Source of the DNA: an uncultured Acidobacteriota bacterium | Lineage (GTDB): Bacteria; Acidobacteriota; Thermoanaerobaculia; Gp7-AA8; JAHWKK01 | Direction: 5' to 3' | NCBI GenBank assembly: GCA_963829355.1 | Contig: CAWHHZ010000020.1 | Location: forward strand, 4,278 to 68,277 | Length of the DNA stretch: 64,000 nt | Shown: piece after piece, positions 12,041 through 63,800 of the stretch | How the letters are laid out: each line of letters starts with the position of its first letter | Position numbering within the stretch: position 1 is the first letter of the stretch | Notes under the pieces: generated by a model | Databases searched by the model: none | The model's input: only the letters and a program-made list of their open reading frames with translations | What the model was told of the DNA's origin: nothing | Translations under genes and position numbers: made by a program

Positions 12041-12131
12041 GATGAATCTCCTCTCTTTCTGAATGTCGCTTCTGCTCTTCTATTCGCGTTTCACGTTGGA
12101 TCCTTTAACTCGTTTGAAAAAAATTTTCTCC

Positions 12132-23276: not shown

Positions 23277-23430
23277 TCAAGCCCCCGATTGTAACCGGGG
23301 AGCCGGCCCGAGCCACGGACGTTCGAACCAGCACACCGGAGGAGTGCCGGATTTCCCTTTTCCGTCGGGAACCATCACTTCACGGTGGAAACGCGTCAAT
23401 GTCTCGAGATGGTCGTGAGCAAGCAAGAAC

Positions 23431-30865: not shown

Positions 30866-31086
30866 GAGGACTCTTCTCGCGCGCGCAGAAGTCGACCATT
30901 GCTCTGGGCATTCTCAACATCGTCGTCGTGATCGTCATCCTGCAGCTCTGGCTGCTCACGGCCACGATGCATGCATTTCTCGGCGGCGAGGAGGCTGTGA
31001 TCATTCCGGCCGCGCTCGTCAGCGTCGTGTGCTTCGCACTGAACGCGGGCTTGTTGTGGTACCTCTACAAGCTCGAGCTGGATTGA
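30862..31086 (+). CDS. Small two-TM membrane protein
   Basis: ATGA overlap with the Rieske gene stop. Hydrophobic 74-aa product. Confidence 0.5.
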   Translation: MRGLFSRAQKSTIALGILNIVVVIVILQLWLLTATMHAFLGGEEAVIIPAALVSVVCFALNAGLLWYLYKLELD

Positions 31087-31091
31087 GCGAC

Positions 31092-32189
31092 GTGACCACA
31101 GGCTCGACGAAAGAGGGGGCTCCGAGCTCAGGGTGGAGACGAGCTGTGGAGGAGTTCTCCGTCGCCAACTTTGCGATGGTCATGGCGACTGGGATTGTCG
31201 GCATTGCCGCGGATCTGCTCGACTGGCCGGTAATCCCTGCGGCCCTGTTCTGGATCAACATGGTCGCCTTCATAGTCTTCTGGATCGTGATGGTGGCACG
31301 AGTCGCCATGTTTCCGCGGCGGGTATTTTCCGAGTTGATCGGGCACGGCTCCGGTGCGGCGTTCTTCACGACTGTCGCCGCGACCGCGGTTCTGGCGACG
31401 CAGATCCTCCGGCGCTCTGCCGACTACGAGGTTGCACTCGGCTTATGGATCTTCGCTGTGCTGCTGTGGCTCGGCATCACCTACACGTTCTTCGCGGCCT
31501 TGACGGTCAAGGAGGAGAAGCCGTCACTCGACAAAGGGATCTCCGGAGCCTGGCTCGTCGCGGTCGTCGCGACCCAGTCGATTGCGATTCTCTCGACTCT
31601 CATGGCGGCCCACTGGACACAGCCGTGGCGTATGATGGGGAACTTTCTAGGTCTCTCGATGTGGCTATGGGGCGGGATGCTCTACATCTGGATGATCTCG
31701 ATGATCTTCTACCGCTACACCTTCTTTCGTTTCTCACCCGCTGATCTCACCCCGCCGTACTGGATCAATATGGGGGCGATGGCAATCTCGACGCTTGCCG
31801 GATCGCTCCTGATCTTCAACAGCCAGAACGGATCGCCCTACCTCGCGTCGCTCCAGCCGTTTCTCAAAGGATTCACGGTCTTTTACTGGGCGACGGGAAC
31901 GTGGTGGATCCCGATGCTGGTAATCCTGGGATTCTGGCGTCATGTGTATCGCGGCTTTCCGCTTCAATACGATCCACTCTACTGGGGGGCGGTCTTCCCT
32001 CTCGGCATGTACACGGCCGCGACGTGGCAGATGTCACGCGCAATGGACCTCGTTTTTCTTCTCGTACTCCCCCGAGGATTCTTCCTCATTGCGATTGCAG
32101 CGTGGGTTGCAACCTTCTTCGGACTCCTCCTCGCTCTGTTCAGACACAGGGGGATGGCCTTCTCCGCCCGGGGCGGGGCCAGGGACTGA
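31092..32189 (+). CDS. TehA/Mae1 (TDT) family anion transporter
   Basis: About 10 TM helices and an FSVANFAMVMATGIV start typical of the family. GTG at 31092 follows the upstream stop. Confidence 0.6.
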   Translation: MTTGSTKEGAPSSGWRRAVEEFSVANFAMVMATGIVGIAADLLDWPVIPAALFWINMVAFIVFWIVMVARVAMFPRRVFSELIGHGSGAAFFTTVAATAVLATQILRRSADYEVALGLWIFAVLLWLGITYTFFAALTVKEEKPSLDKGISGAWLVAVVATQSIAILSTLMAAHWTQPWRMMGNFLGLSMWLWGGMLYIWMISMIFYRYTFFRFSPADLTPPYWINMGAMAISTLAGSLLIFNSQNGSPYLASLQPFLKGFTVFYWATGTWWIPMLVILGFWRHVYRGFPLQYDPLYWGAVFPLGMYTAATWQMSRAMDLVFLLVLPRGFFLIAIAAWVATFFGLLLALFRHRGMAFSARGGARD

Positions 32190-32223: not shown

Positions 32224-32472
32224 TCATTTTACGGCGTCCCGTACCTTCGATATGCGATTTCGTCGAATTCGGGCGAACTCGTCCCTGCCCGAGTCCGCTC
32301 CAACCGCGGCGATCGCCCACATCACGTCCGGGTCGTCCGGCTCGCGCTCGAGTTCGTACCAGTGAAGCTCGAGCGACCTGGTGTCGCCGTCGTACGCTTC
32401 GGTTGCCACTGGAAGAAGCCGTTCATCGTGACTCTCCTGTGCGACACCTTGTGCCGGAAACCGACAGCTCAT
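32224..32472 (-). CDS. 76-aa-family small acidic protein, divergent copy B
   Basis: SHDERLLPVATEAYDGDTRSLELHWYELEREPDDPDVMWAIAAVGADS matches 35219..35449, then diverges. The only in-frame ATG lies inside the 20-nt repeat. Confidence 0.35.
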   Translation of the reverse strand: MSCRFPAQGVAQESHDERLLPVATEAYDGDTRSLELHWYELEREPDDPDVMWAIAAVGADSGRDEFARIRRNRISKVRDAVK

Positions 32473-32534
32473 GTCGAATCGCGACACCGCTTTGCGAAGT
32501 AAAGTTAAGATTCTGGCTCCGACCCTAACTTTAC
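32442..32534 (+). repeat. Composite repeat: about-20-nt tandem units plus T-hairpin
   Basis: Units CGACACCTTGTGCCGGAAAC / CGACAGCTCATGTCGAATCG / CGACACCGCTTTGCGAAGTA. T-hairpin GTAAAGTTAAG-ATTCTGGCTCCGAC-CCTAACTTTAC at 32499-32534. Confidence 0.8.
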
Positions 32535-33923
32535 GCGCGGTGGGGCTGCGACGCATGTCATCCACTCCAGCACGTCACGCTTGTACGCCGAATCATACTG
32601 AGTCGTCAGCGTGTAGCCGTTGACGGCCTGCACGACACTCATCAGCTCGATTCTGGGATCGATCCGGACCTCCCCCGCGCGGGGAACCTCCGCCGTTCTC
32701 GCGTCCGGCGATCTCACGAAATCCGTCATGAGCGACAGCGCGTGGCGGGAGACCCACTCGCGCTCCGGGTCCACCAGCATGTGCCCCATCCCGGGAAGGA
32801 CGACCGCCGAGATCCGTCCGTCGTTTCCGGGCCGATCCTCGAGCTCCGCCAGGCGACCTACGCTCGTCGCTACCGGCACGTTGTCCTGCTCGTCTTCTGC
32901 ACCATAGAGGACGAGTGTCGGAACGGAGTCACTGCCCCACGATCGAATCGGATCGTACTCGCCAACGCGCGCCCACCATCGCCAGCGCCAGTCATCCGGC
33001 TCCGAGGGCATGACCTCAGCGAACGGCGCCGCCGGACCCTCGAGCGCCGCTTGCCTCGCCTTCTCGTAGTCGATCCAGGAGAGCCGGCCAAGCGCGTGTT
33101 CCTGAATCAATTTCTGCAGGGCCATCGCGCTCGAAATCGCCTCTTGCGAAAATCCCTTCCCCTCCATGGTGTTCCGAATCTCGAAACCGATCTGATCGAA
33201 TACCGGGACCGCGGCCGACGAGATGCTCACCACGAATCCACCACGACCCGAGAATCGAGCAGCCAGTGGTGCGATCCAGCCACCCTGACTCAGACCCACC
33301 CAGCCGGTGTTCCCGGGATCGAGACCGGCCGTCTCCACCAGGAGATCGAAACCGGCAACGGCGTCGCGAGCCAGGGCATCGAACCCGACCTCCTTCCAAT
33401 CCCCTTCCGAGTCGCCCGAGCCCCGTTTGTCAGGGAAAAGAACGTCGACTCCCGCCACCGCCAGCGCATGCGCGAACGTGTAGGCCCACACGTTGTCGCG
33501 GTCGCTCGATCCGGACCCGTGGATCATCACTGCTCCCCGACCGGCGGGGCGTGAGGGCCGAAGCAGGATGCCCGCCAGGCGAACCCCGTCTGCGCTCCGA
33601 AACGTCACGCTCTCTACCTGATACGGTGCGTCCGGATCACGTGTCCATCGAGCACCATCCGGACTTACGAGCACCGCCTCTCCCTCAGCCGGCGCAATCC
33701 AGCGGAACGCGTTTTCCTCGTCGCCGATCTGGATGCTGCCGAAGGACGCATGATCAAAATCCAGACGTCGATGACTACCTCCAGGGCCCGGCGAGACGAG
33801 AACAGATGAGCCATCAGGCGTGCGGTACCAGCCGATCGGTGACGTCGCGCCTTCACCGTTTGCGGAGATCGTGATCGACGACAGCAGGGAGAAACAAAGG
33901 ATCTGGAGCAGAAATCGCTTCAC
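32505..33923 (-). CDS. Secreted alpha/beta hydrolase, with its 3' end running into the T-hairpin
   Basis: Signal peptide. HGSGSSDRDN and GLSQGGW (GxSxG). The last residues, APPRVKLGSEPES, are encoded by the repeat, so the gene looks truncated. Confidence 0.7.
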   Translation of the reverse strand: MKRFLLQILCFSLLSSITISANGEGATSPIGWYRTPDGSSVLVSPGPGGSHRRLDFDHASFGSIQIGDEENAFRWIAPAEGEAVLVSPDGARWTRDPDAPYQVESVTFRSADGVRLAGILLRPSRPAGRGAVMIHGSGSSDRDNVWAYTFAHALAVAGVDVLFPDKRGSGDSEGDWKEVGFDALARDAVAGFDLLVETAGLDPGNTGWVGLSQGGWIAPLAARFSGRGGFVVSISSAAVPVFDQIGFEIRNTMEGKGFSQEAISSAMALQKLIQEHALGRLSWIDYEKARQAALEGPAAPFAEVMPSEPDDWRWRWWARVGEYDPIRSWGSDSVPTLVLYGAEDEQDNVPVATSVGRLAELEDRPGNDGRISAVVLPGMGHMLVDPEREWVSRHALSLMTDFVRSPDARTAEVPRAGEVRIDPRIELMSVVQAVNGYTLTTQYDSAYKRDVLEWMTCVAAPPRVKLGSEPES

Positions 33924-34960: not shown

Positions 34961-35041
34961 TCATGCCGAATCGCGACACCGCTTTGCGAAGTGAAGTTAG
35001 AATTCTGGCTCTGACCCTAACATTACGGGCTCTAACTTTAC
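34961..35041 (+). repeat. Composite repeat: one 20-nt unit plus a T-hairpin with a duplicated 3' arm
   Basis: GTGAAGTTAGA-ATTCTGGCTCTGAC-CCTAACATTAC, then GGG-CTCTAACTTTAC. Confidence 0.75.
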
Positions 35042-35114
35042 CCGTACGAGTAGAGTTGTCGGTCTGAGAGGCGGGCTGTCGCTGATCCGCCTCTCCCGCG
35101 GCGACACAAAGGTC

Positions 35115-35475: not shown

Positions 35476-35757
35476 GGTTCTACTCCTCGTAGAATCCGAG
35501 ATCATCGTCAGGGTCTCGAACCAGCACACTGGAGGTGTGCCGGAAGGTAGCCGGTGGTAGCGCCGGAGGCGCAACCACCGGTGCAATGTCACCCACCCCA
35601 CCACGCAGCACCCCGGCAGGGGTGCCGGGACTCGCGGCCTGGGAAGACAGTTCATACCGCAGAGCGACACCTCATGCCGGAAACCGACAGCTCATGCCGA
35701 ATCGCGACGCGACTTTGCGAAGTAACGTTTGGATTCGAGGTCTGACCCCAAGTTTAC
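35476..35757 (+). repeat. Full composite repeat: Y fragment + H element + four 20-nt units + T-hairpin
   Basis: GGTTCTACtcctcGTAGAA; H at 35522-35627; 20-nt units at 35645-35720; T variant at 35722-35757. Confidence 0.8.
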
Positions 35758-38443: not shown

Positions 38444-38523
38444 CTGAGAAGGATAACCGATCGTACTCAGGAGATTGATCCCGGCGAACATGGAGATCCG
38501 GGGTCAGGTTTGTGACCGACGGT

Positions 38524-38610
38524 GGTTCTACTGACCGTAGAAGTTTTGGCGGAATCGGCCTCGGATTCTACATCCCGTAGATTTGACCGCCGACCAAAGA
38601 CCTGACCCCA
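38524..38610 (+). repeat. Y element
   Basis: GGTTCTACtgaccGTAGAA...GGAATCGG...TTCTACatcccGTAGA-TTTGACCGCCGACCAAAGACCTGACCCCA. Confidence 0.8.
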
Positions 38611-38649
38611 AGGCTCCGCAAAGCTCCGCAAAGCTCCGAAAGCTCCGAG
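38611..38649 (+). repeat. 10-nt tandem repeat (GCTCCGCAAA-type)
   Basis: aggctccgca aagctccgca aagctccga aagctccga. Homologous tract with one more unit at 48281-48320. Confidence 0.75.
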
Positions 38650-38667
38650 GTCCCTAACTTCCCCTTT

Positions 38668-38723
38668 TTACTGACGATCTTCCGAAAAGAGAACGGTCTC
38701 GATCCGCTCGACCCGTGATTCGA
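38668..38723 (-). pseudogene. 3' fragment of the 84-aa coiled-coil gene (homolog of 48340..48594)
   Basis: Encodes ...ESRVERIETVLFSEDRQ plus an identical 3' flank. Homology stops near 38723. Confidence 0.6.
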
Positions 38724-38786
38724 TTCTAGCATGCGCCCATCGGGTCTGTGCGCCTGCGGCTGTGGGTCGGGCAATGGGCGACGCTC

Positions 38787-38877
38787 GGTTCGTGACTCGA
38801 TCGTAGAAATCTGAGCGGAATCGGCTTCAGATTCTACATCTCGTAGATTCGACCGCCGACCAAAGACCTGGCCCCAG
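38787..38877 (+). repeat. Y element (first arm degenerate)
   Basis: ...GTAGAAATCTGAGCGGAATCGGCTTCAGATTCTACATCTCGTAGATTCGACCGCCGACCAAAGACCTGGCCCCAG. Confidence 0.8.
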
Positions 38878-38890
38878 ATGGTCTGGCCCC

Positions 38891-38978
38891 GGTTCTACTG
38901 ATCGTAGAAATCTGAGCGGAATCGGCTTCAGATTCTACATCTCGTAGATTCGACCGCCGACCAAAGACCTGGCCCCAG
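38891..38978 (+). repeat. Y element (tandem with the previous copy)
   Basis: GGTTCTACtgatcGTAGAAATCTGAGCGGAATCGGCTTCAGATTCTACATCTCGTAGATTCGACCGCCGACCAAAGACCTGGCCCCAG. Confidence 0.85.
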
Positions 38979-39235
38979 AGGTCTGGCCCCAGAGGTCTCT
39001 GCTACAGCCACACAATTGCGAGAACGAGAATCGCGATGTCGGGCTCTGTCGGCAGGCGAGTTCACCGCGAGCACTCAAAAGTGTGATGGCTTGCCCTGAT
39101 ATTGTGTCAGGAGAATGATCCCCACCAGAGATCTGACCTTCTGAGGCTTGAGGGCCGGAGGAGTGACGCGCGACGGTTATTGGCGTGTTCCGCGGTTGCC
39201 ATCAATCTCGAACGGGCCTTCTGTACAATCGGAGC

Positions 39236-40209: not shown

Positions 40210-40282
40210 GGCTGTGGATGTAGTTTAACCAGAAGATGTTCAGTCCGAGCGAGAACTTCGGCGGTACAGTTCCATCGCCCCC

Positions 40283-40335
40283 GGATTCTACCCTTCGTGG
40301 AATTGACAGCCGACCAAAGACCGGGCACTGCCAGA
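40283..40335 (+). repeat. Partial Y element
   Basis: GGATTCTACccttcGTGGAATTGACAGCCGACCAAAGACCGGGCAC. Confidence 0.55.
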
Positions 40336-40344
40336 AGGGGCCTA

Positions 40345-43503: not shown

Positions 43504-43759
43504 AGCACACCGGAGGTGTGCCGGAAGGTAGCGGTGGTAGCGCCGGAGGCGCAACCACCGGTGCATGTCGCCCACCCCAACACGCAGCACCCCGGCAGGG
43601 GTGCCGGACGTCGCCCTGGGAAGACAGTTCATGCCGCAGAGCACACTCAGCCGGAAACCGACAGCTCATGCCGAATCGCGACACGACTTTGCGAAGTAAA
43701 GTTACGATTCTGGCTCCGGCCCTAACTTTAGGCGATTCTGGCTCCGGCCCTAACTTTAC
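43504..43759 (+). repeat. Full composite repeat: H element + 20-nt units + T-hairpin with duplicated loop and arm
   Basis: H at 43504-43606; units at 43621-43697; GTAAAGTTACG-ATTCTGGCTCCGGC-CCTAACTTTA, then GGCG-ATTCTGGCTCCGGC-CCTAACTTTAC. Confidence 0.8.
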
Positions 43760-44595: not shown

Positions 44596-44636
44596 TCGAA
44601 AACTTAACTTTCTAGCTCCGACGTTAAGTTTTCCGA
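44596..44636 (+). repeat. T' hairpin
   Basis: TCGAAAACTTAAC-TTTCTAGCTCCGAC-GTTAAGTTTTCCGA, a 13-bp stem with one bulged C. Confidence 0.8.
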
Positions 44637-44770: not shown

Positions 44771-44829
44771 GCCGGATGGCTCGATCATTAGGGCTACCGC
44801 AATGCGATTCTTAGAGGTACGATTGAGCC

Positions 44830-45081
44830 ATGGCCAGCGTGCAGGTTGAGTTACCGGAGAGCGTTCTCGCGGCATTACGGAAGGCCCCTCATGAGGTTGG
44901 CCCGGAGATGCGCATTGCCGCAGCAATTCATTGGTATCAGCAGAGCTTGATCTCTATGGAGAGGGCGGCAGAAGTCGCGGGGATGAACCGAACCGAGTTT
45001 CTGGCGGAGCTGTCCCGTCGGCGGGTCGATGTGTTCGTGGTAGATGATGAGGACCTCGCGCGAGAGCTCGAGAATGCCTGA
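44830..45081 (+). CDS. UPF0175 family antitoxin, copy 1
   Basis: ...AAAIHWYQQSLISMERAAEVAGMNRTEFLAELSRRRV. Identical copy at 52151..52402. Confidence 0.7.
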   Translation: MASVQVELPESVLAALRKAPHEVGPEMRIAAAIHWYQQSLISMERAAEVAGMNRTEFLAELSRRRVDVFVVDDEDLARELENA

Positions 45082-45559
45082 TCGTCTCGTCGTCAACGCT
45101 TCCCCATTGATCTTTCTCGGCAACGGCAATCGGCTCGAGCTGCTGCGAGATTTCACTGAAGGACCTGTGATCGTACCCGGGGTCGTCCTGGACGAGATCC
45201 TGTCAGGCGGGCATCACGACCGGGCGGCCGAGGCGGTGAGAAAGTCGAGCTGGCTTCAGGCAGGCACTCCCGACTCAATGCCGCCAGAAGTGCTGGAGTG
45301 GGATCTCGGTGCGGGTGAGTCCGCCGTCATCGCGATCTCACTGGAGACTGAAGGTGCGAGGCCAGTGATCGATGATCTTGCTGGCCGCCGGTGTGCGAGA
45401 GCGTTCGATCTGGACGTGATCGGAACTCTGGGTCTTGTGATCGCAGCGCATCGTCGCGGAACGGTCGACGACCCTCGGAGAGTTCTGCTCGAACTGAGGG
45501 ATGCCGGAATGTGGCTCTCCGATGAGGTATTGGAGAAGGCCCTCAAGAAGAACGACTAA
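45074..45559 (+). CDS. DUF3368 (PIN-like) putative toxin, copy 1
   Basis: MPDRLVVNASPLIFLGNGNRLELL...DDLAGRRCARAFDLDVIGTLGLV. Overlaps the antitoxin stop. Identical copy at 52395..52880. Confidence 0.7.
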   Translation: MPDRLVVNASPLIFLGNGNRLELLRDFTEGPVIVPGVVLDEILSGGHHDRAAEAVRKSSWLQAGTPDSMPPEVLEWDLGAGESAVIAISLETEGARPVIDDLAGRRCARAFDLDVIGTLGLVIAAHRRGTVDDPRRVLLELRDAGMWLSDEVLEKALKKND

Positions 45560-45633
45560 TCGCTTTTCGACAGGTCGCTCTCCTATCGTCCTCCCCACCA
45601 CGGAAGATCCGGCGGAGGTTTTTGCTAGACAGT

Positions 45634-45722
45634 GGTTCTACTGTGTGTAGAAGTGTGCGCAGAATCAGCTTCGGATTCTACGTCTCGTAGATTTGACCGC
45701 CGAACAAAGACCTGGCCCCCAG
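45634..45722 (+). repeat. Y element
   Basis: GGTTCTACtgtgtGTAGAA...TTCTACgtctcGTAGATTTGACCGCCGAACAAAGACCTGGCCCCCAG. Confidence 0.8.
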
Positions 45723-45897
45723 CCTCGAAGTGGTCGGAGTCGACGGAGGAGTTCTTGCCGTCTTTCAATGACGATTACGTCGCGGTTCAGCTGGAGGCGA
45801 TGGATTGGAATCTCGTCGGAGTGACGAATTTGGCTCAGTGCTCTCGCCACGGCTCAGAATAGCAATGATGTCAACCTGAAGATTCTCGAAGGCATCT

Positions 45898-45932
45898 GAA
45901 AACTTATATTTTGAGCTTTGAGGTTAAGTTCT
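45898..45932 (+). repeat. T'' hairpin variant
   Basis: GAAAACTTATA-TTTTGAGCTTTGAG-GTTAAGTTCT. Confidence 0.7.
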
Positions 45933-45973
45933 ACGATCGCAATCGGCAGAAGCCGTTCGTCATGATCCGACAT
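45933..45973 (-). pseudogene. 5' fragment (first ~13 codons) of the 76-aa gene family
   Basis: Encodes MSDHDERLLPIAI and is cut exactly at the T'' edge. The upstream leader is conserved with copy A. Confidence 0.6.
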
Positions 45974-45999: not shown

Positions 46000-46272
46000 G
46001 GTTCTACTTCTCGTAGAATCCGAGATAATCGTCAGGGGTCTCGAACCAGCACACCGGAGGTGTGCCGGAAGGTAGCCGGTGGTAGCGCCGGAGGCGCAAC
46101 CACCGGTTCAAGACGACCCTCCCCAACACGCAGCACCCCGGTAGGGGTGCCGGGACTCGCGGCCTGGGAAGACAGTTCATGCCGCAGAGCGACACCTCAC
46201 GCCGAATCGCGACACGACTTTGCGAAGTAAAGTTTAGATTCGAGGTGTGACCCCAAGTTAAAGTTTTCCTTC
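46000..46272 (+). repeat. Full composite repeat: Y fragment + H + three 20-nt units + chimeric T-hairpin
   Basis: H at 46047-46153 (hairpin 3 loop GGTA instead of GGCA). One 20-nt unit fewer than the 35.6-kb copy. The 3' arm reads GTTAAAGTTTTCC, like T'. Confidence 0.8.
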
Positions 46273-46385
46273 TCGTAGAGTTCACCGCAGACCAAAGACC
46301 TCGCACCAGGGGTCTTCGGCTCGAAGACCCACAGCGCGCGAGGAATTCCTGAAATCACATTAACCTTTCGTGTTAATGTATTCTG

Positions 46386-47867: not shown

Positions 47868-47982
47868 ATGACAGCTCATGCCGCAGGGCGACAACTCATG
47901 CCGGCAACCGACAGCTCAGGCCGAATCACGACACCGCTTTGCGAAGTAAAGTGAAAATTCTGGCTCTGACCCTAACATTAAC
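47868..47982 (+). repeat. Composite repeat: 20-nt units plus T-hairpin
   Basis: ATGACAGCTCATGCCGCAGG / GCGACAACTCATGCCGGCAAC / CGACAGCTCAGGCCGAATCA / CGACACCGCTTTGCGAAGTA, then GTAAAGTGAAA-ATTCTGGCTCTGAC-CCTAACATTAAC. Confidence 0.8.
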
Positions 47983-48198: not shown

Positions 48199-48235
48199 GT
48201 AAAGTTACTTTTCTGGCTCTGACCCCAATTTAATC
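48199..48235 (+). repeat. T-hairpin (degenerate arms)
   Basis: GTAAAGTTAC-TTTTCTGGCTCTGAC-CCCAATTTAATC. Confidence 0.65.
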
Positions 48236-48239
48236 TTCC

Positions 48240-48281
48240 CACATCCCGTAGATTTGACCGCCGACCAAAGACCTGACCCCA
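48240..48281 (+). repeat. Partial Y element (3' half)
   Basis: CACATCCCGTAGATTTGACCGCCGACCAAAGACCTGACCCCA. Confidence 0.7.
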
Positions 48282-48320
48282 AAGCTCCGCAAAGCTCCGC
48301 AAAGCTCCGCAAAGCTCCGA
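48281..48320 (+). repeat. 10-nt tandem repeat, 4 units
   Basis: AAAGCTCCGC x3 plus AAAGCTCCGA. Confidence 0.8.
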
Positions 48321-48339: not shown

Positions 48340-48594
48340 TTACTGACGATCTTCCGAAAAGAGAACGGTCTCGATCCGCTCGACCCGTGATTCGAGACTG
48401 GTGAGGCGCTGGTCCAGTGCAGTGTAAGAGAGTTTGATCATCGAACGAGTTTCCCCGAACTCGCCCCGAGTCTCCGCGTGATGTCGGTCGACCTTCGCGT
48501 CGAGCAGCGAGATGGCTTCGAGGATCCGATCGAACTTCTGATCGTTCGCTTCCGCGAGAACGTCGAAATGTCGTTTCAGTTCCCCGTCATCCAT
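48340..48594 (-). CDS. Hypothetical coiled-coil protein (84 aa)
   Basis: MDDGELKRHFDVLAEANDQKFDRILEAISLLDAKVDRHHAETRGEF...LTSLESRVERIETVLF. A 3' fragment copy lies at 38668-38723. Confidence 0.45.
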   Translation of the reverse strand: MDDGELKRHFDVLAEANDQKFDRILEAISLLDAKVDRHHAETRGEFGETRSMIKLSYTALDQRLTSLESRVERIETVLFSEDRQ

Positions 48595-48837
48595 TCGGTT
48601 TCCTCCGCCGGATCGTCGAGAGGCTGGATCCAGAGATCAGTTTACCATCCCATCGTCAGGTGCAGTCCCCTGCGTCGGATGGTGGATTCCACCGCAACAG
48701 ACGCCGCCAGAGTCGATCTACTCCGATGAGGTATGAGAGGAGGCCCTCCAGGAGAACGACTGAATCGCTTTTCGACGGCGGCCCTCCGACCGACCTCCAC
48801 AACACAGAAGATCCGCCGGGGGTTCTTGCTCGACAGT

Positions 48838-48931
48838 GGTTCTACTGACCGTAGAAATTTCAACGGGATCGACTTCGGATTCTACCTCTCGTAGATTCGA
48901 CCGCCGACCAAAGACCTGCCCCCAGAGGTCG
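48838..48931 (+). repeat. Y element
   Basis: GGTTCTACtgaccGTAGAA...TTCTACctctcGTAGATTCGACCGCCGACCAAAGACCTGCCCCCAGAGGTC. A decayed DUF3368 3' end precedes it (48720-48762). Confidence 0.8.
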
Positions 48932-51499: not shown

Positions 51500-51795
51500 A
51501 GACAGAGCCCTCGACGACCAACGGATCGTCCGACCGACGCTCGAGCACGTGATCGATCTGGTGATGGAGGAGTTCGCGGAAACGCTCGAGACTCTCCGTC
51601 GGAGGAACCCGTCGCCCCGGCCGAAAAGCCTTTGCGCTTCTCGCCCACGAGGAATGCGGACTGACGCATCGGATGATCGGGGAGTATCTGGGCATCTCTC
51701 CCTCAGCCGTCTCCCAGATGCTCCGGGCGGCGACCGAGCTCGAGCGGAAGGACCGGCAATTCGGCGAAGCAATTCACCGAATCCGCGCCTCGAAA
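51500..51795 (+). pseudogene. Frameshifted C-terminal remnant of an HTH (DnaA_C-like) gene that ends in the T' hairpin
   Basis: LEHVIDLVMEEFAETLETLRR, then in the +1 frame RRPGRKAFALLAHEECGLTHRMIGEYLGISPSAVSQMLRAATELERKDRQFGEAIHRIRASKT-stop. The stop lies within the T' 5' arm. Confidence 0.55.
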
Positions 51796-51828
51796 ACTTA
51801 ACTTTCTAGCTCCGACGTTAAGTTTTCC
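51790..51828 (+). repeat. T' hairpin
   Basis: TCGAAAACTTAAC-TTTCTAGCTCCGAC-GTTAAGTTTTCC. Confidence 0.8.
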
Positions 51829-51829
51829 C

Positions 51830-52076
51830 CGATCTGAACCTAGACGGCATCGACTGGGTGATCGTCGGCGGTGAATCCGGCCCCGGAGCCCGGCCGATGG
51901 AACCGGAATGGGTTCTCGACCTGAAACGTCAATGCCACGATGCGTTGGTTCCTTTCTTCTTCAAGCAGTGGGGCGGGACGAATAAGAAGAAGGCTGGGAG
52001 AGAACTGGAGGGACGGACCTGGAACGAAATGCCGAAGCATACGGTAGAGAGCGTGGCGGGCGGTCCTCCTTCCTAG
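51830..52076 (+). pseudogene. 3' fragment of a DUF5131 gene (paralog of 37085..37828)
   Basis: [69 protein letters not shown]. Homology starts at the first base after the T' hairpin. Confidence 0.75.
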
Positions 52077-52150
52077 GGGCGGTGCTGTCCAGTACCTCGA
52101 TCACGAGGGCACGGCTACCGCAATGCGGTTCTTAGAGGTACGATTGACCT

Positions 52151-52402
52151 ATGGCCAGCGTGCAGGTTGAGTTACCGGAGAGCGTTCTCGCGGCATTACG
52201 GAAGGCCCCTCATGAGGTTGGCCCGGAGATGCGCATTGCCGCAGCAATTCATTGGTATCAGCAGAGCTTGATCTCTATGGAGAGGGCGGCAGAAGTCGCG
52301 GGGATGAACCGAACCGAGTTTCTGGCGGAGCTGTCCCGTCGGCGGGTCGATGTGTTCGTGGTAGATGATGAGGACCTCGCGCGAGAGCTCGAGAATGCCT
52401 GA
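52151..52402 (+). CDS. UPF0175 family antitoxin, copy 2 (identical to copy 1)
   Basis: The 83-aa translation is identical to 44830..45081. Confidence 0.7.
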   Translation: MASVQVELPESVLAALRKAPHEVGPEMRIAAAIHWYQQSLISMERAAEVAGMNRTEFLAELSRRRVDVFVVDDEDLARELENA

Positions 52403-52880
52403 TCGTCTCGTCGTCAACGCTTCCCCATTGATCTTTCTCGGCAACGGCAATCGGCTCGAGCTGCTGCGAGATTTCACTGAAGGACCTGTGATCGTACCCG
52501 GGGTCGTCCTGGACGAGATCCTGTCAGGCGGGCATCACGACCGGGCGGCCGAGGCGGTGAGAAAGTCGAGCTGGCTTCAGGCAGGCACTCCCGACTCAAT
52601 GCCGCCAGAAGTGCTGGAGTGGGATCTCGGTGCGGGTGAGTCCGCCGTCATCGCGATCTCACTGGAGACTGAAGGTGCGAGGCCAGTGATCGATGATCTT
52701 GCTGGCCGCCGGTGTGCGAGAGCGTTCGATCTGGACGTGATCGGAACTCTGGGTCTTGTGATCGCAGCGCATCGTCGCGGAACGGTCGACGACCCTCGGA
52801 GAGTTCTGCTCGAACTGAGGGATGCCGGAATGTGGCTCTCCGATGAGGTATTGGAGAAGGCCCTCAAGAAGAACGACTAA
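52395..52880 (+). CDS. DUF3368 (PIN-like) putative toxin, copy 2 (identical to copy 1)
   Basis: The translation is identical to 45074..45559. Confidence 0.7.
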   Translation: MPDRLVVNASPLIFLGNGNRLELLRDFTEGPVIVPGVVLDEILSGGHHDRAAEAVRKSSWLQAGTPDSMPPEVLEWDLGAGESAVIAISLETEGARPVIDDLAGRRCARAFDLDVIGTLGLVIAAHRRGTVDDPRRVLLELRDAGMWLSDEVLEKALKKND

Positions 52881-52956
52881 TCGCTTTTCGACAGGTCGCT
52901 CTCCTATCGTCCTCCCCACCACGGAAGATCCGGCGGAGGTTTTTGCGCTCGACAGC

Positions 52957-53070
52957 GGTTCTACTGACCGTAGAACTTTGAACGGAATCGGCTTCGGATT
53001 CTACCTCTCGTAGAATTGACCGCCGACCAAAGACGTGGCCCCCAGCCTCGAAGACGTGGCCCCCAGCCTC
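52957..53070 (+). repeat. Y element with a duplicated tail
   Basis: GGTTCTACtgaccGTAGAA...TTCTACctctcGTAGAATTGACCGCCGACCAAAGACGTGGCCCCCAGCCTCG, then a repeat of AAGACGTGGCCCCCAGCCTCG. Confidence 0.8.
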
Positions 53071-53094: not shown

Positions 53095-53129
53095 GGAAAC
53101 TCATATTTTGAGCTCTGAGGTTAAGTTCT
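53095..53129 (+). repeat. T'' hairpin variant
   Basis: GGAAACTCATA-TTTTGAGCTCTGAG-GTTAAGTTCT. Confidence 0.65.
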
Positions 53130-53148
53130 GGGAAATGTCGCGCATAAC

Positions 53149-54135: not shown

Positions 54136-54172
54136 GTCAAGTTACTTTTCTAGCTCCGACGTTAACTTTACT
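54136..54172 (+). repeat. T' hairpin (variant arms)
   Basis: GTCAAGTTAC-TTTTCTAGCTCCGAC-GTTAACTTTACT. Confidence 0.65.
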
Positions 54173-56780: not shown

Positions 56781-56990
56781 AGTGCGAATTATCTCATACA
56801 ACGGGTAATATTGCACTGTGGCTATACCGAGTAACTCGAGGGTCCTTTTCTCGTGCTCGAAACGACTCGGCTCCATCACGATTTCCCATTTCGGGACTGA
56901 TCGTACCTCGGTCGCCCGATGATCCACTCCTCGTGGACCCACGGGCTGAGTCCACTCATCAACCGTATGAGCCACGTCTGGCCAGGCGGT

Positions 56991-57101
56991 GCCGTAGACT
57001 CGACCGCCTACCATAGACCGGGCACCGAACGTCTGTGCGGAATCGGCTTCGGGTTCTACCTCTCGTAGATTGACCGCCGATCGCAGACCTGACCCCCAGA
57101 G
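56991..57101 (+). repeat. One and a half Y elements
   Basis: CGTAGACTCGACCGCCTACCATAGACCGGGCAC, then ...GGAATCGGCTTCGGGTTCTACctctcGTAGATTGACCGCCGATCGCAGACCTGACCCCCAGAG. Confidence 0.7.
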
Positions 57102-57170
57102 TTCGCGGAGATTGATCCCGACGAATGAGGATCCGCGAACGCTCGGGTATTTCAGGCCGGTCGTCCAGAA

Positions 57171-57226
57171 CCACGACATCACTTTGCGAAGTAAAGTTAA
57201 GATTCTGGCTCCGGCCCTAACTTTAC
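57171..57226 (+). repeat. One 20-nt unit plus T-hairpin
   Basis: CCACGACATCACTTTGCGAAGTA, then GTAAAGTTAAG-ATTCTGGCTCCGGC-CCTAACTTTAC (57191-57226). Confidence 0.8.
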
Positions 57227-57358
57227 TCTTCCAATCGTTCTCGCCAACATTGCGACGCTGATCTCCGGCACGTTGCGCGGAAACATCACGCGCTGATGAG
57301 CTCGAACCATCTGTTGCGGTGCTCGACTCCGGATCGAGAGGCTCTCTCGTAGCCACAG

Positions 57359-58396
57359 TCACAGCTTTATCCGGCGTATCCTCACACCTGATGAGTCAGA
57401 CTGGACAACCGTGAAGTCGATGATACCGATCGTCTTCCCCTCTTCCGACTCGGCGCGTACTCGCCATCTGCCGGGGGCGGCATTGGCCTTCGAAGAATAT
57501 CCGCGATACCCATCGGCCCGGCCACTTCGAATCGTGAAAGGAATCACGTCCGAGGTGATCCATTTGCCGGCGACTTCATCCCGTTTCTGCCATCGGTGCC
57601 GGACCGTGGTCTCGAGTCCACCGGGAATGAAGATCGACGAGAAGCAGAAGACCGGCTCCGAGTCCCGCCGGTGGAACACGGGTGAAGAGCGAAGCCAGAA
57701 CCGTCGCGGCCGGGACGGCTCGATCTGCGCGGTGTAGTGGCCGTCTCGCTTCTCGACATGATGGGCGATGAAAAGCTCCTTTTTAACCAGCGGGACCGGA
57801 GGAAGAATGTTGGCGACATTGAGAATCAGGAGTACCGCACCGACCGCGAAGGATGGAAGGACCGATGCCTTCTTCTTAGACAGAAGCCACAGGCCCAGCG
57901 TCGCCCCGAGCGCGGCACCGATGCTCACATAGAACCACGTCGGCTGCATGCTGCGGAAAGCATGGGGCAGTGCGAAGTTGAAGAACATGATTCCGCAGGT
58001 CGTAAACAGCGTCCAGGAGAGCGTGAGCCGTGAGTAGCGGTGTTCGACAAACTCGTTCCCGATCAGAAGGACGGTCAGCCCCAGCACGAGAATGAACCCA
58101 CCGATCTCACTGGAGCTGAGAAAATAGAAAATTACGAGAGCACTGAAGATCCCTCCGAAGAAAAACTGGAGCGCGACGTTCTGATAGCCCTTCCACCGGT
58201 GCTCGATCTCTCGACCGACGACGAGGAGAATGGTCGCGGCGATGAGGTAGTAAACCGTGAGGACCACGAAATCGATCGGGACGATCCGGCGGCCCAGTGT
58301 GAAGGCGTCGAAAACGAATCCTCCGAAAAACGATATTGCGGGAAGGGTCCGGGCAAGACGAGGATACCGCGGGCTCAGTTCGTCCGGGTTCAGCAT
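57359..58396 (-). CDS. Polytopic membrane protein with a DUF2914-like C-terminal domain, paralog 2
   Basis: 345 aa, collinear with 22239..23276. About 25 substitutions by my manual alignment. Confidence 0.6.
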   Translation of the reverse strand: MLNPDELSPRYPRLARTLPAISFFGGFVFDAFTLGRRIVPIDFVVLTVYYLIAATILLVVGREIEHRWKGYQNVALQFFFGGIFSALVIFYFLSSSEIGGFILVLGLTVLLIGNEFVEHRYSRLTLSWTLFTTCGIMFFNFALPHAFRSMQPTWFYVSIGAALGATLGLWLLSKKKASVLPSFAVGAVLLILNVANILPPVPLVKKELFIAHHVEKRDGHYTAQIEPSRPRRFWLRSSPVFHRRDSEPVFCFSSIFIPGGLETTVRHRWQKRDEVAGKWITSDVIPFTIRSGRADGYRGYSSKANAAPGRWRVRAESEEGKTIGIIDFTVVQSDSSGVRIRRIKL

Positions 58397-58491
58397 TCAG
58401 GGCCCCGATTGTAACCGGGAAGCCGAGCCATCGTCCGGGAGCGTTCTGGCCCCAACTTAAAATCGTCCCGGAGCGGTAAGCGCTTTGTGAA

Positions 58492-58527
58492 GTAAAGTTT
58501 AGTTTGGAGGTCCGGCCCCAACTTAAC
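58492..58527 (+). repeat. T-hairpin
   Basis: GTAAAGTTTAG-TTTGGAGGTCCGGC-CCCAACTTAAC. A loop-plus-arm fragment (TTCTGGCCCCAACTTAAAA) lies at 58445-58464. Confidence 0.7.
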
Positions 58528-58802: not shown

Positions 58803-58840
58803 TCGAAAACTTACCTTTCTAGCTCCGACGTTAAGTTTCC
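58803..58840 (+). repeat. T' hairpin
   Basis: TCGAAAACTTACC-TTTCTAGCTCCGAC-GTTAAGTTTCC. Confidence 0.75.
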
Positions 58841-58843
58841 TTG

Positions 58844-58969
58844 ATCTCCGAGTATCTGGGCATCTCCCAGCCCGCCGTTTCCCAGATGCTGGAGACGGCC
58901 AGGGCACTCCAGCGAAAGGACGAGAAGTTCGGTCGAGCGGTTGAAGGCATCCGAAAACTTATAATTTGA
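58844..58969 (+). pseudogene. C-terminal remnant of the HTH gene family, ending in T''
   Basis: ISEYLGISQPAVSQMLETARALQRKDEKFGRAVEGIRKLII-stop. It starts right after T' and stops inside T''. Confidence 0.55.
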
Positions 58970-58989
58970 GCTTTGAGGTTAAGTTTTCC
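58952..58989 (+). repeat. T'' hairpin variant
   Basis: CGAAAACTTATA-ATTTGAGCTTTGAG-GTTAAGTTTTCC. Confidence 0.7.
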
Positions 58990-59120: not shown

Positions 59121-59198
59121 GCCGGTGGTGGCGCCGGAGGCGCAACCACCGGCTCAAGGCCCCCACCCGACCACGCAGCACCCCGGCAGGGGCGCCGG
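59121..59198 (+). repeat. Partial, decayed H element (hairpins 2 and 3 only)
   Basis: CCGGTGGTgGCGCCggaGGCGCaACCACCGG ... GCACCCCggcaGGGGCGC, with one stem mismatch. Partial Y tails follow near 59240-59290 and 59345-59385. Confidence 0.6.
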
Positions 59199-59423
59199 AC
59201 TACGGACGCCGCCAAGTCGGGTTCGAGTCCTCACCCCGCGGCATGTACGTCTCGTAGATCAACCAAAAACAAAAGACCTGGCACTGAGGTCGGCTTTTCG
59301 GTCAACTGCTGACATCCGCAGAAGTCGGGTCAGGAAAAGGCCAGAATTCTACTCGTTAGACTCTGTCGCAAAATCGAAGACCTGACCTGCGTTTGCACGT
59401 AGCTTCGGAAGGGGCTGCACGGG

Positions 59424-60864: not shown

Positions 60865-63800
60865 TCATCGCGCTGCCTTCCACTGTTTCGGCTCTCCGAA
60901 GCTGATGAGGAGGCCGAGGGATTCTAGGGAGTCGAGGGTTTCGGTTAGTTGGTCGGGGCGGGCTCGGCGGAAGCGTTTGGTCAGGGTCGGGAGGTCTAGG
61001 GGGGTGTGGTCGGTGAATTCGTCGCGGACGGCGGTGAGGCGGCTGGGGAAGTCCTTGGGCCAGGGCTTCTTTGCGGCTTTGACTGCTGGCGTGTCTTTCC
61101 CGGCTCCTGGCTCCTGGCTCTCGACTCCTGCAAGAGCTTCCTGGGTGGCGGCTCGGGTGCCTTCGGGGTTCTGGAACTCGGGGCGGAGCCAGCGGATGAG
61201 GCCGCGGCTCTCTTCCTCGGCGCGCTCGGCGTTGAGGGCGACGAGGCGCTCGAGGATCTGCTCGTCGGTCAGGTCGTGCGGCCAGCCGTACGCGTCGAAG
61301 ACCGCCGCGTCGAGCTCGTCGTGGATCTGCCTGAGCACCGACACGAGCCCCTTCTCGTGAATCTCTTTGTCCTTCTCGGTCAGCTCCTCGCCGGAGCGGA
61401 GCTTTTCGAGGACGTTGTACATACCGGTGATGGTGAGGTCCTCAAACAGATCAGTCCGTTCTCTTCGGTGACTGTCTAGAGCTTCAGCAAGCCGCCGGAT
61501 CGCCTCGACCGGGGCGTCGGGGAGTGGAAATGGGAATGGATCGAAGCAGCGGGTTTTCGTGTATCGCGGATCATTGCCGACTCCCAACCGGCCTCCTGCT
61601 GCGAGAGCCCACACGAGATGAATCCGGCTTGACATCACACCTAGGAAAAAGGCGTCGTCGAGGCCCACGTTAACCAACATGTTGTCGGGCAGAATGCTGT
61701 GATCGAGAAAGAAAAAGCACCGATGCTTCGAAGTCTCTGGGGTTGAAATGTATCGAGACAGTCCTCGAAGTGCCGCGCGCAGCTCAGTATTTCGACGTCC
61801 AAACAACCACCAATTGTCACGCCGGTACTTCTCGGCATTGAGGTCGCGTTCCGGCTTCACTCGCTCGAGAATCCTTTGATACACCTCAGGGAAAGAAGCT
61901 TGTACCTCGCCGGATGACAACCCTTCTAGGTCGATGACCATTACGTCGCGAGAAGTCTGCACAAGGTCCTTCCCGTGTCGGTAGTGGCGAATATGATTTT
62001 CCAGTCCCTCAATCCGACCTAGACCCAGGCGCTTGGCTTCATCCTGGGTTACGATGAAGCCCTTTCCATGCAGCTTAACGCCTGGAGAGCAGAGGTTTTC
62101 ATTTGCCTTGAGCGAAACTGTGGAGGCGACGTCCGCACCTATCGTCAAGTCTGGATAGATGAGACCCTGCCGCTTCGAAAGTACGACCTCCAGGTGGTTC
62201 TCATCATGGTCCTGCTCTTGAGAGACTTCTTGAAGAGAACCTTCTCGCTCTCCCCGCACCCCCACGGTCATCGCGATCCTCACGTCCGCGCCGTCAACCG
62301 AGTCAACCCAGGGATGGTCCGGGATAGCGAAGAGAAGCGAGAGCGGAGGTTTGGCAGCAAGGTGCATCTCCGCGACGCGGCGAGCAAACTTCTGAGAGAA
62401 GCTGTTGGTGGTGATGAGACCGAAACGTGCCGCCCCCTCCAATCGCACCAGTTCGGCCGCGCGATGCCACCAGTACATCACGTAGTCGATATTCTCAGGC
62501 AGCTCGGAATAGGTTTCCCTTAGCGCTTGAACGTAACCCTGTCCCAGTGCGGTTCGCATTCGCCAATTGCCAACAAACGGCGGATTCCCCACGATGAACT
62601 CCGCCTCCGGCCACTCAGCCTTTCGGGGGTTCACGTATCTGTACACCGGCGTCCTCGCGCTCTCATCAGGGATCTCTTCGCCGGTGACGGGACTGAGCTT
62701 CATGGTCTCGCCGTCCCAGCGGGTGACGGGGTTGCTGTTGTCGTCGAGGAGGGGCTCGATGGTGTCGTAGGCGAGGACGGCGTCGCGGCACTCGATGTTG
62801 TGGTAGTCGCGGAGGATCGGCTCCTGGGGGTTGGTCTTCCAGCCGCGGGTCCGGATCTGCCACTGGAGCCAGCCGATCCAGAGCACGAGCTCGGCGATCT
62901 CTTTCGCCCACGGCTTGATCTCGATCCCGAGAAACTGCTCGGGCGTCACCATCCGTCCGTGCTGGAGGAAGAGCGCTTCATCGCCGAGGTCGTGGAGGAG
63001 ATCGAGGATCTCGTTCTCGAGTCGCTTGAAGAGGTCGAGCGCGACGAAAAGGAAGTTGCCGGAGCCGCACGCCGGGTCGAGCACGCGCAGGTTGCACAGC
63101 TTGTCGAAGAAGGCGTACACCGGCTTCCGCGCCTCGACCATCGCCTTCCGGTCGTCGTCCGCCTTCCCCTTCTCGATGATGTTCCGCACCTCTGCCTGGA
63201 CGAGATCCCACTCCTCGCGGAGCGGCTCCTCGATCGTCGGTCCGACGAGGCGCTCGACGTACGCGCGGGGTGTGTAGTGCGCACCGAGGCGATGGCGTTC
63301 CTTCGGATCGAGCGCGCGCTCGAGCAGCGTCCCGAAGATCGCCGGCTCCACCTCGGACCAGTCGGCCTCGGCAGCCTCCAGCAGAACCGCGATCTCTTTG
63401 TCCCGGAGCGGGAGCGCGGTGCAGTCGGCGAAGAGGCCACCGTTGAACTTCCACACGTGGCCGACGCCGTAGAGCGTGCCGCCGGCATCCATCGTCTTCC
63501 ACAGATGCTCGAGCTCCGGCACGAACTGCCGCGGATCGTCGTACCACCGCTCGAGTCCCTTCCTGAATGAGTCGTCCGGAAGCAGCTCGACGTCCTCGGC
63601 GAACATGGTGAAGAGACAGCGCATCAGGAACTTTGCGACGAGCTCCGAGTCGTGCCCGGTCTCCTCGAGTGTGCGTGCGAGACGGGCGACGTGACTCGCG
63701 ATGTTCCGCGTGACGCGCGCCGCTTCCTTCGATGGGTCGAGCGCGTGCGGATCGGTGAAGATCGTCCGGAACAGGTTCGCGTGTGTCTCGAGGCTCTGGA

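Follow-up and report, generated by a model that had tools for sequence, protein, structure and literature searches.

A 27-kb gene array in the 64-kb stretch of Acidobacteriota DNA analysed here (the window) contains a family of short hairpin repeats. We call its variants T, T', Tb and T'b. All copies have the same orientation and are confined to the array. The stem differences between T and T' preserve base pairing. On the right the units end sharply, with truncated genes at this boundary or close by, and one copy is linked to the same Xre-RES module in a second genome. We suggest that the four variants may be one family of terminal sites at which the gene blocks of a chromosomal, cassette-like but non-integron array are, or until recently were, joined or recombined, and that the enzyme concerned would be encoded elsewhere. 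The probability of this reading is roughly 40%. The initial annotation of the window had described T and T' as a hairpin with compensatory stem changes around an invariant, oriented loop. That observation is real and statistically strong, but it is narrower than was claimed.

We searched the window with the loop pattern WTTCTRGCTCCGRC, allowing up to one mismatch. There were 11 matches, all on the + strand, against 0.20 expected by chance; the highest count in 100 shuffled sequences was two. Repeat finding and a gapless line-up identified 16 full copies of the hairpin repeat. Again, all were on the + strand, and all fell between 32.5 and 59.0 kb. The unit is 36–41 nt long and the family comprises six T, three T', one T/T' chimera, three Tb and three T'b copies. 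The arms of T read GTAAAGTTAAG-loop-CCTAACTTTAC and those of T' read GAAAACTTAAC-loop-GTTAAGTTTTC. A covariance model of the 16 copies, run with filters off, found nothing more in the window, no copy in the other 37 kb and no true copy on the minus strand. The sequences first quoted for T (32499–32534 and 57191–57226) and T' (44596–44636, 51790–51828 and 58803–58840) were all present as given. The array and its hairpin units are listed below; ORF denotes open reading frame, aa denotes amino acids and MAG denotes metagenome-assembled genome.

32200–59500, + strand: cassette-like array of 27 kb, holding all T-like copies.
32499–32534, + strand: T hairpin; 11-bp stem with one A.C mismatch, loop ATTCTGGCTCCGAC; 58.2 bits in the covariance model; contains the stop codon of a minus-strand alpha/beta-hydrolase ORF (32505–33923).
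34991–35026, + strand: T hairpin; loop ATTCTGGCTCTGAC; the 3' arm is repeated over 14 nt, CTCTAACTTTACCC, at about 35030–35043.
35722–35757, + strand: Tb; loop ATTCGAGGTCTGAC, 7 of 11 pairs; preceded by a long left module (35523–35721).
43696–43759, + strand: T hairpin with a tandem duplication; the hairpin proper is 43696–43731.
44596–44636, + strand: T' hairpin; perfect 11-bp stem at 44598–44633, loop TTTCTAGCTCCGAC.
45898–45933, + strand: T'b; loop TTTTGAGCTTTGAG; 3' foot abutted by the N-terminal 13 codons of a minus-strand 76-aa ORF (45935–45973).
46227–46262, + strand: Tb; loop ATTCGAGGTGTGAC; D2-type repeat fused on the right.
47946–47981, + strand: T with a degraded stem; 6 of 11 pairs.
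48199–48234, + strand: T/Tb mosaic; loop TTTCTGGCTCTGAC; D2-type repeat fused on the right.
51790–51828, + strand: T' hairpin; TAA stop of an HTH-like ORF remnant in the 5' arm; a 5'-truncated DUF5131 piece (51826–52034) runs from the 3' foot.
53095–53130, + strand: T'b; Xre-RES homology with the MAG of a relative begins at the 3' foot (53131).
54136–54171, + strand: T/T' chimera; T-like in the outer stem, T'-like in the loop and inner 3' arm; 30 nt past the RES gene.
57191–57226, + strand: T hairpin; loop ATTCTGGCTCCGGC.
58492–58527, + strand: Tb; loop TTTGGAGGTCCGGC; preceded by a collapsed T-like remnant (about 58443–58466) and followed by a DUF4411 C-terminal piece.
58803–58840, + strand: T' hairpin; a 5'-truncated HTH paralog (58842–58970) begins just past the 3' foot.
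58953–58988, + strand: T'b; at the 3' end of the truncated HTH paralog, in the same relative position as the T' at 51790.

The loops of T and T' are identical at 12 of 14 positions, while the stem has changed at 7 of 22. Hence, the description of an invariant oriented loop holds nearly for T versus T', on one strand, but not for the family. The Tb copies (35722, 46227 and 58492) and two T'b copies (45898 and 53095) have different loops (ATTCGAGGTCTGAC, TTTGGAGGTCCGGC or TTTTGAGCTTTGAG), that of T'b 58953 has diverged too, and 5 of the 14 loop columns are invariant across all copies. The cores of the three T' copies are the same or nearly so over 42 nt, with unrelated flanks on both sides. Similarly, T 32499 and T 57191 are identical at 39 of 40 positions and their flanks are unrelated. 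Because near-identical cores sit in unrelated flanks, the T' and T cores are discrete units rather than by-products of segmental duplication. Copies 54136 (T/T') and 48199 (T/Tb) are chimeric, the loop and 3' arm are duplicated in tandem as an exact 28-nt repeat at 43705–43758, the 3' arm alone is repeated at about 35030, and a collapsed remnant lies near 58443. ORFs that enter a unit end inside it: at the TAA of the HTH remnant in T', at a TGA in another frame in T'b, and at the stop of the minus-strand hydrolase gene in T. Since these stops lie in differing frames and strands, conservation is at the nucleotide level and not at the peptide level.

To define the boundaries of the units, the 16 copies were compared in all 120 pairs, and homology was followed in both directions away from the hairpin. 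Leftward homology was shared by 21 pairs. Rightward, past the 3' stem foot, it was shared by none. The extent of the leftward homology varies, reaching at most 76 nt without gaps and about 230–350 nt when gaps are allowed. Four gene pieces that have lost their left part lie at a 3' foot, or no more than about 35 nt from one.

From 51826: DUF5131 piece; the parent reads ...GCTCCCCGACTTGAACC and the junction reads GTTAAGTTTT joined to CCCCGATCTGAACC.
From 58842: HTH paralog piece.
From 45935: first 13 codons of the minus-strand 76-aa ORF.
From 44671: RES piece, about 35 nt past the foot.

The DUF4411 C-terminal piece past Tb 58492 is a possible fifth case; its junction could not be mapped. The retained part of each gene is always to the right of the foot, whichever strand encodes the gene. 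Therefore, the events occurred at the DNA level and were polar. Microhomology at the junctions is limited to 1–2 nt. The source appears to be metagenome-assembled, and repeats of 40–230 nt can mislead assemblers. Assembly chimeras would not be expected to sit on one side of a repeat only, and like junctions appear in the independent assembly of a relative (contig L086, described below).

Several copies are found 0–90 nt past the ends of + strand genes (RES, DUF5615, the HTH remnant and M78). Such positions would suit an element that acts in RNA and not in DNA: by 3'-end protection, as a processing site or as a small RNA in + strand transcripts, or as antisense RNA from the minus strand. Compensated stem changes are expected of such an element, and a 236-nt module that includes T folds better than its shuffles on either strand (z = −2.9). 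Conversely, the orientation of the hairpin is unchanged beside minus-strand blocks (hydrolase/TetR, AbiE, DUF2914 and a 93/87-aa ORF pair). One orientation, with genes on both strands, is no promoter or terminator pattern. Furthermore, the stems are weak and AT-rich, a U-tract is lacking and the loop has 14 nt; none of 10 terminator-like sites in 43–59.5 kb coincides with a T unit. Rfam gave no match in 32–60 kb even at E <= 5, and a scan of the array at gathering thresholds was likewise empty. Action in RNA would also leave the truncated genes at the 3' foot unexplained, and we regard it as quite improbable. Promoters were considered too. The unit did not fit a sigma-70 or sigma-54 promoter by eye, and a promoter scan of 43–59.5 kb was empty.

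The arms of T and T' differ at seven positions, and every change preserves or improves pairing. The initial annotation had counted two base-pair flips. Both are real (position 6 and position 11, each G-C in T and C-G in T'), but this is an undercount. A third flip converts T-A to A-T at position 2, and the seventh arm change repairs the A.C mismatch of T at position 10, giving A-T in T'. When seven random substitutions were placed on the T arms in simulations, the probability of retaining 11 of 11 pairs was 1.5e-5, and that of retaining at least 10 was 2.7e-4. The compensation between T and T' is far beyond chance. Across the family, 76.7% of stem cells are paired, and covariation was above that of all 500 shuffles and all slid registers. 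This signal is carried by the three pairs that split T from T'. Intermediates between the stem variants exist (54136–54171 and 48199–48234), but they break pairs and add no new compensated ones.

Preserved pairing and an oriented, conserved loop in T and T' suggest recognition of a folded strand, in which the loop would be read by sequence and the stem by shape. A stem dyad kept through paired changes, with a near-constant oriented loop, is more economically explained by such recognition than by one dimer that binds duplex DNA. In the latter case, the arms would be half-sites of an operator, with T and T' serving two paralogous regulators. Symmetric arm changes are also expected of co-evolving half-sites, and HTH and antitoxin genes are numerous in the array. 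However, the best conserved part of T versus T' is then an asymmetric 14-bp spacer. The sites are at the 3' ends of genes and not at promoters, no sigma-70-like promoter was found in 43–59.5 kb, and the orientation is uniform whatever the direction of the genes. Operators would not explain the polar junctions either. We consider them a very improbable explanation. Covariation had been presented as direct evidence of selection on the folded hairpin. What stands is that the dyad was kept by multiple paired changes. Compensatory change alone is no proof of selection on the fold, because template switching at quasipalindromes yields the same pattern.

Both strands were folded as single-stranded DNA (ssDNA), a check that the initial annotation had proposed. 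The best copies reach −4.5 to −8.8 kcal/mol, with z scores of −0.8 to −2.9. Stability is slightly higher on the minus strand, where 12 A.C mismatches of the + strand become G.T, compared with 5 G.T pairs on the + strand. The single bulged base reported for the T' stem belongs to copy 44596–44636 only. There, flank bases outside the conserved unit extend the stem by an outer TCG/CGA pairing with one bulged C; copies 51790 and 58803 have no such bulge. Upstream of the T loop, all T and Tb copies share a conserved CTTTGCGAAGTAAAG (32490–32505 and equivalents), from which a mini-hairpin with a GCGAAG-type GAA triloop can form. A long-range helix between an upstream CCGAATC box and the loop was also considered and rejected; the alignment fold gave the local mini-hairpin instead.

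Scans for the exact patterns in 185,579 species genomes and a metagenome collection gave only chance matches in signal-peptide codons. When the pattern was relaxed in the 3' arm, one true copy was recovered, in the Acidobacteriota MAG MFD01721.bin.2.2 (contig CAVUJZ010000003.1, here L086). Collection of copies from elsewhere, another check proposed at the outset, therefore yielded this copy alone. It lies at 10540–10578, is orthologous to window copy 54136–54171 and has the loop TTTCTGGCTCCGAC. It folds as a 12-bp stem with a 3-nt bulge (−8.8 kcal/mol). The hairpin is directly past the orthologous Xre-RES pair, which is 89.8% identical over 932 nt, and homology to the window ends at the hairpin. 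In the window, this Xre-RES homology begins on its left exactly at the 3' foot of the preceding T'b (53131). In the MAG, the island is small and lies between glyQS and metH, a different chromosomal locus; it holds D2-type repeats and a DUF5131 3' fragment. No integrase or other recombinase, no transposase and no HUH protein was found within 10 kb of the MAG copy. A BLAST search of plasmids with the T and D2 modules returned nothing, the tehA loci of 80 relatives had no loop motif, and a search for repeats in the three closest Acidobacteriota relatives examined found no array. The hairpin is not a general feature of Xre-RES modules, as no T-like sequence follows RES homologs at 43–52% identity. 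The sample that yielded the relative MAG also gave a Thermoanaerobaculia contig (L095 17826–18578, L096 8109–8957) with an RHS/YD-repeat toxin locus, then an rve-type transposase remnant and a DUF433/DUF5615 pair. This locus shares a toxin-antitoxin (TA) family with the array but has no T or D2 repeats.

Taken together, the units behave like cassette-terminal sites: there is one at each of many block ends, with one polarity, they are restricted to the array, they travel with a block between genomes, and on the right they adjoin anything, gene interiors included. From these patterns we infer folding as a single strand in vivo, the existence and type of an enzyme, and the position of cleavage. 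The events might proceed as follows. In a single-stranded state, during replication or transfer, the AT-rich 11-bp arms would pair and expose the asymmetric 14-nt loop. The loop sequence and the stem shape would be read by a site-specific enzyme whose gene lies elsewhere in the genome, perhaps an HUH-type nuclease or a tyrosine recombinase that works on folded DNA. This enzyme would break and join DNA at the 3' stem foot, with polarity set by the asymmetric loop. In each event, the cargo with its terminal hairpin would gain a new right partner, which could be a further block or, in error, a gene interior. A broader proposal is a cassette-capture system apart from integrons. In such a system, a recombinase specific for single strands would stack blocks one way, including copies of host genes and TA modules, by reading the loop of a one-helix hairpin and cutting at its foot; T, T', Tb and T'b would be co-existing variants of the site. 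We offer this only tentatively and think it unlikely.

To our knowledge, integrons are the only well-understood system that stacks cassettes, whether promoterless or self-contained, by recombination of folded single-stranded hairpins, and the mobile genetics of the Acidobacteriota, a soil phylum, are poorly known. If true, our reading would add a second type of array, with a much smaller, one-helix site of unrelated sequence and loop-specific recognition. This would widen the known machinery of gene capture, and the hairpin would be a concrete DNA bait for finding the enzyme. The units are a new variant of the hairpin-bounded cassette theme if they are functional, and a well-preserved quasipalindrome relic if they are not.

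The main rival takes the units to be passive palindromic relics. Within a repeat-rich island, duplication, homologous recombination and gene conversion would have multiplied an old intergenic or 3'-end sequence and kept its copies alike, with no dedicated enzyme. The dyad would be restored by quasipalindrome template switching, and slippage stimulated by the hairpin, or nuclease processing, would make the stem foot a deletion end-point. Duplication has clearly been heavy. Long left modules are shared, the D2, D12 and D17 repeats are co-oriented, and 0.94 kb is duplicated at 98% identity. Degraded stems in half of the copies, tandem slippage products at hairpins, junction microhomology of only 1–2 nt and the lack of any recombinase found in the window also fit passive origins, as does the comparison of T' 51790 with T'b 58953, which diverge about like the neighbouring HTH coding remnant (69% nucleotide identity). 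Less easily reconciled are the identical 42-nt T' cores in wholly unrelated flanks, and a ratio of 21 left to 0 right among 120 pairs is very polar for random deletion. Neither is it expected that the loop is kept at 12 of 14 positions while the stem changed at 7 of 22, nor that a unit is retained with the Xre-RES module at another locus of a second genome. We judge this rival somewhat unlikely, yet serious. Even so, such relics would be a clean natural case of pair-preserving change in a DNA quasipalindrome, with hairpin feet as polar end-points of rearrangement.

Other results count against cassette-terminal sites. Of the 16 copies, only 11 keep the loop; between T' 51790 and T'b 58953 the arms are better kept than the loop, and the rate at which this element diverges is about that of the coding remnant next to it. 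In about half of the copies (Tb, T'b, 47946 and 48199), no more than 5–7 of 11 pairs are left. Rather than many independent events, the covariation reflects in essence a single split between two clades, T and T'. Stability as ssDNA is low, between −1.5 and −8.8 kcal/mol (z scores between +0.65 and −2.9), and Tb, T'b and 54136 fold no better than shuffles (z about zero). The T 5' arm can form a competing mini-hairpin, CTTTGC-GAA-GTAAAG, which the alignment fold prefers. Since this mini-hairpin uses the 5' arm of the T stem, alternative pairing is possible. Some block boundaries have no T-like copy (DUF5131 3' ends and D2-bounded blocks). A DUF2914 gene copied into the array is not joined exactly at hairpin feet, its junctions being 20–110 nt from the neighbouring T units. 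Domains of integrases, transposases or HUH proteins were found in no ORF of the 64-kb window, where tyrosine recombinases were checked in sizeable ORFs. Finally, the family was found in two genomes only, which gives low comparative power.

The arms of T' had been noted to fit the R''/R' consensus of integron attC sites. These sites consist of R and L boxes and a variable terminal structure of 20–100 nt (PMC4889954). The match to RYYYAAC/GTTRRRY is literal (ACTTAAC...GTTAAGT) but confined to the three T' copies among the 16. In T the boxes are in reverse order, the 5' arm having GTTAAG and the 3' arm CCTAAC, and T'b and 54136 fail one box. No RYYYAAC..GTTRRRY pair at attC spacing (37–167 nt) occurs anywhere in the window. 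As was stated of a hairpin of about 40 nt, the units have no L boxes; an unpaired central spacer and extrahelical bases are absent too. Instead, a single 11-bp helix closes a sequence-conserved 14-nt loop, in place of the variable terminal structure. The DUF5131, HTH and 76-aa ORF junctions lie after GTTAAGTTTT, GTTAAGTTTCC(T) and GTTAAGTTCTAC, at the stem foot and 9–11 nt 3' of G/TT. The window contains no intI gene.

There are real likenesses to an integron or to a cluster of attC sites lacking an integron integrase (CALIN). Co-oriented imperfect palindromes lie at the 3' ends of gene blocks, TA modules and small ORFs of no known function are abundant, as in sedentary chromosomal integrons, and sites within one array resemble each other most. 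In addition, ORF stops fall inside the left arm, and the T units are proposed to act as a folded single strand too. A CALIN likewise lacks an adjacent intI. Conversely, about half of the cargo of the T array is on the opposite strand, and the left homology is variable in length. attC membership fails because of the missing L boxes, the size, the junction position and the lack of an integrase, and the attC label should be dropped. That these are genuine attC sites of a CALIN, recombined by an IntI encoded elsewhere, is largely refuted and we give it hardly any weight.

It is also conceivable, though decidedly unlikely, that a unit of 45–70 nt is itself mobile, as a selfish miniature hairpin that a single-strand HUH transposase, encoded elsewhere, copies into intergenic DNA, with the gene blocks as bystanders. 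It could then resemble repetitive extragenic palindromes (REPs), their REPIN and bacterial interspersed mosaic element (BIME) forms, and the REP-associated tyrosine transposase (RAYT), or a subterminal end of IS200/IS605. Compensated palindrome changes have been reported for REPINs. Like REPs, T units are short, extragenic imperfect palindromes with compensated stem changes, often just past genes, and form mosaics with other repeat modules (here D2, D12 and 20-nt repeats). Discrete, near-identical units in unrelated flanks would be expected of mobility, and strict one-strand orientation would be expected of ssDNA transposition tied to the direction of replication. By contrast with REPs, T units have a long conserved loop and one orientation in one island: 16 of 16 copies are on the + strand, the 64 kb covered include 37 kb of ordinary flanking chromosome with no copy, and there are no inverted doublets (0 inverted matches). 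They have no GTAG-type head, and Pfam found no Y1 transposase domain (RAYT) in the window. The GTAG/CTAC palindromes that do occur belong to the separate D2 and D17 repeats.

The likeness to the subterminal hairpins of IS200/IS605, and of the palindrome-associated transposable elements (PATEs) derived from them, is in recognition of a folded ssDNA hairpin (proposed for T), strand-specific orientation and an end near the hairpin foot, which resembles right-end cleavage. Of these, strand polarity alone agreed on closer comparison. T units have no matching left-end hairpin, no conserved sequence to their right and no conserved target tetranucleotide, their left boundary is not sharp, and they delimit a mixed cargo arranged in tandem. 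With Pfam, neither TnpA nor TnpB, nor any Y1 or Y2 transposase gene, was found in the window. In origins of rolling-circle Rep proteins, the stem is free to change if paired while loop sequence and polarity are kept, which is the pattern of T versus T'. The T junctions differ in being at the stem foot and not in the loop, although a single 28-nt duplication does begin at the edge of the loop. No Rep gene is present, and one chromosomal island contains 16 copies.

The array is bounded by tehA/SLAC1 (31029–32189) on one side and, from about 59.5 kb, by a region with an AraC-type HTH gene and an MmeI-like restriction-modification gene on the other. By its gene content, the window is ordinary bacterial chromosome, most likely acidobacterial: its tehA/SLAC1 is 70% identical to that of Acidobacteriota MAGs, and it has an Acido-Lenti-1 RNA. 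A phage origin was rejected; megablast of 40–60 kb against a phage collection gave one 75-nt chance-level match. A tRNA-type att site was also rejected, as the window has no tRNA or tmRNA genes. Array genes are on both strands, whereas self-BLAST of the array gave 71 direct and 0 inverted repeat matches. The cargo includes the alpha/beta-hydrolase with TetR, the 76-aa ORF in three whole or partial copies, TcmP-like with DUF5131, a kinase-FGE-hydrolase fusion, DUF6978/DUF1828 and several gene fragments. The TA modules are DUF433/DUF5615 (two pairs), Xre-RES, AbiEi/AbiEii and HTH-M78. The HTH ORF linked to T' had no homologs in our searches and is probably a remnant.

The DUF2914 gene at 57334–58425 is a copy, 92% identical over 1092 nt, of the gene at 22216–23305, 35 kb away; both are on the minus strand. 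This duplicate suggests that host chromosomal genes may be copied into the array. The 0.94-kb duplication (44792–45730 and 52113–53053) contains the minus-strand 93/87-aa ORFs, which have no Pfam match and are possibly a TA pair, and a D2 repeat.

Some T and Tb copies have a long left module attached, which is best seen before the hairpin at 43696.

43504–43695, + strand: long left module; GC-rich hairpins (CCGGTGGTAGCGCCGGAGGCGCAACCACCGG etc.), two to three tandem units of ~20 nt (CTCATGCCG-N5-CGACA), then CTTTGCGAAG.

It occurs again at 35523–35721 and 46048–46226, with shorter left extents at 32441, 47867, 34958 and 57170. The 236-nt T module, which has no Rfam match, was noted above for its fold. 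Its GC-rich part, with nested hairpins CACACCGGAGGTGTG, CCGGTGGTAGCGCCGGAGGCGCAACCACCGG and CACCCCGGCAGGGGTG, is present at 35523–35640, 43504–43620, 46048–46160 and 59123–59200; three of these four copies are attached to T or Tb. The tandem ~20-nt units are directly upstream of T or Tb (35646–35708, 43620–43680, 46177–46215, 47870–47923 and 32441–32490) and vary in copy number. Their ~20-nt spacing, about two helical turns, would suit a row of putative protein-binding sites.

Co-oriented repeat families besides T are D2, D12 and D17. D2 is about 120 nt long, has imperfect inverted-repeat ends (GGGGTCAGGT..TTGTGACCGACGG / CCGCCGACCAAAGACCTGACCCC), contains two TTCTAC-N5-GTAGAA mini-palindromes and ends in a small hairpin (AGACCTGGCCCCAGAGGTCT). 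In the window it is found at 38494–38990 (as a 101-nt tandem at 38799–38990), 40274–40337, 45605–45727, 46264–46315, 48237–48288, 48825–48931, 52926–53050 and 56983–57105. In the relative (L086) it is found at 5676–5790, 6150–6270, 7975–8085 and 12060–12250, and two copies end the island beside metH. D2 bounds gene blocks where T units are absent. It could be a miniature inverted-repeat transposable element, another class of site or the upstream region of minus-strand genes. Just past D2, a 10-nt tandem repeat (CAAAGCTCCG, four copies) occurs at 38609–38647 and 48280–48319, both times as part of a segment of 155 nt, and the two segments are 98.7% identical. Also beside D2 is a gene for a small coiled-coil (SlyX-like) protein, at 48340–48594 on the minus strand, with a fragment at 38669–38723 and a counterpart at about 7700–7925 of L086. 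This gene was rejected as a lead to further arrays, its homologs at 73–79% in more distant Thermoanaerobaculia and other Acidobacteriota being single core-genome genes with no D2 or T.

Three further features of the window were noted. The MmeI-like type IIL restriction-modification fusion that borders the array, beside the small AraC-type HTH gene, is complete (60865–63966, minus strand, 1033 aa) and has N-terminal, helicase-spacer, methyltransferase and target-recognition domains. An Acido-Lenti-1 RNA (Rfam RF01687) lies at 2479–2529 on the + strand, downstream of a Na/Ca exchanger gene, and scores 46.6 bits against a gathering threshold of 37. Lastly, 14549–20767 on the minus strand encodes a 2072-aa protein of Big_9/cadherin-like repeats.

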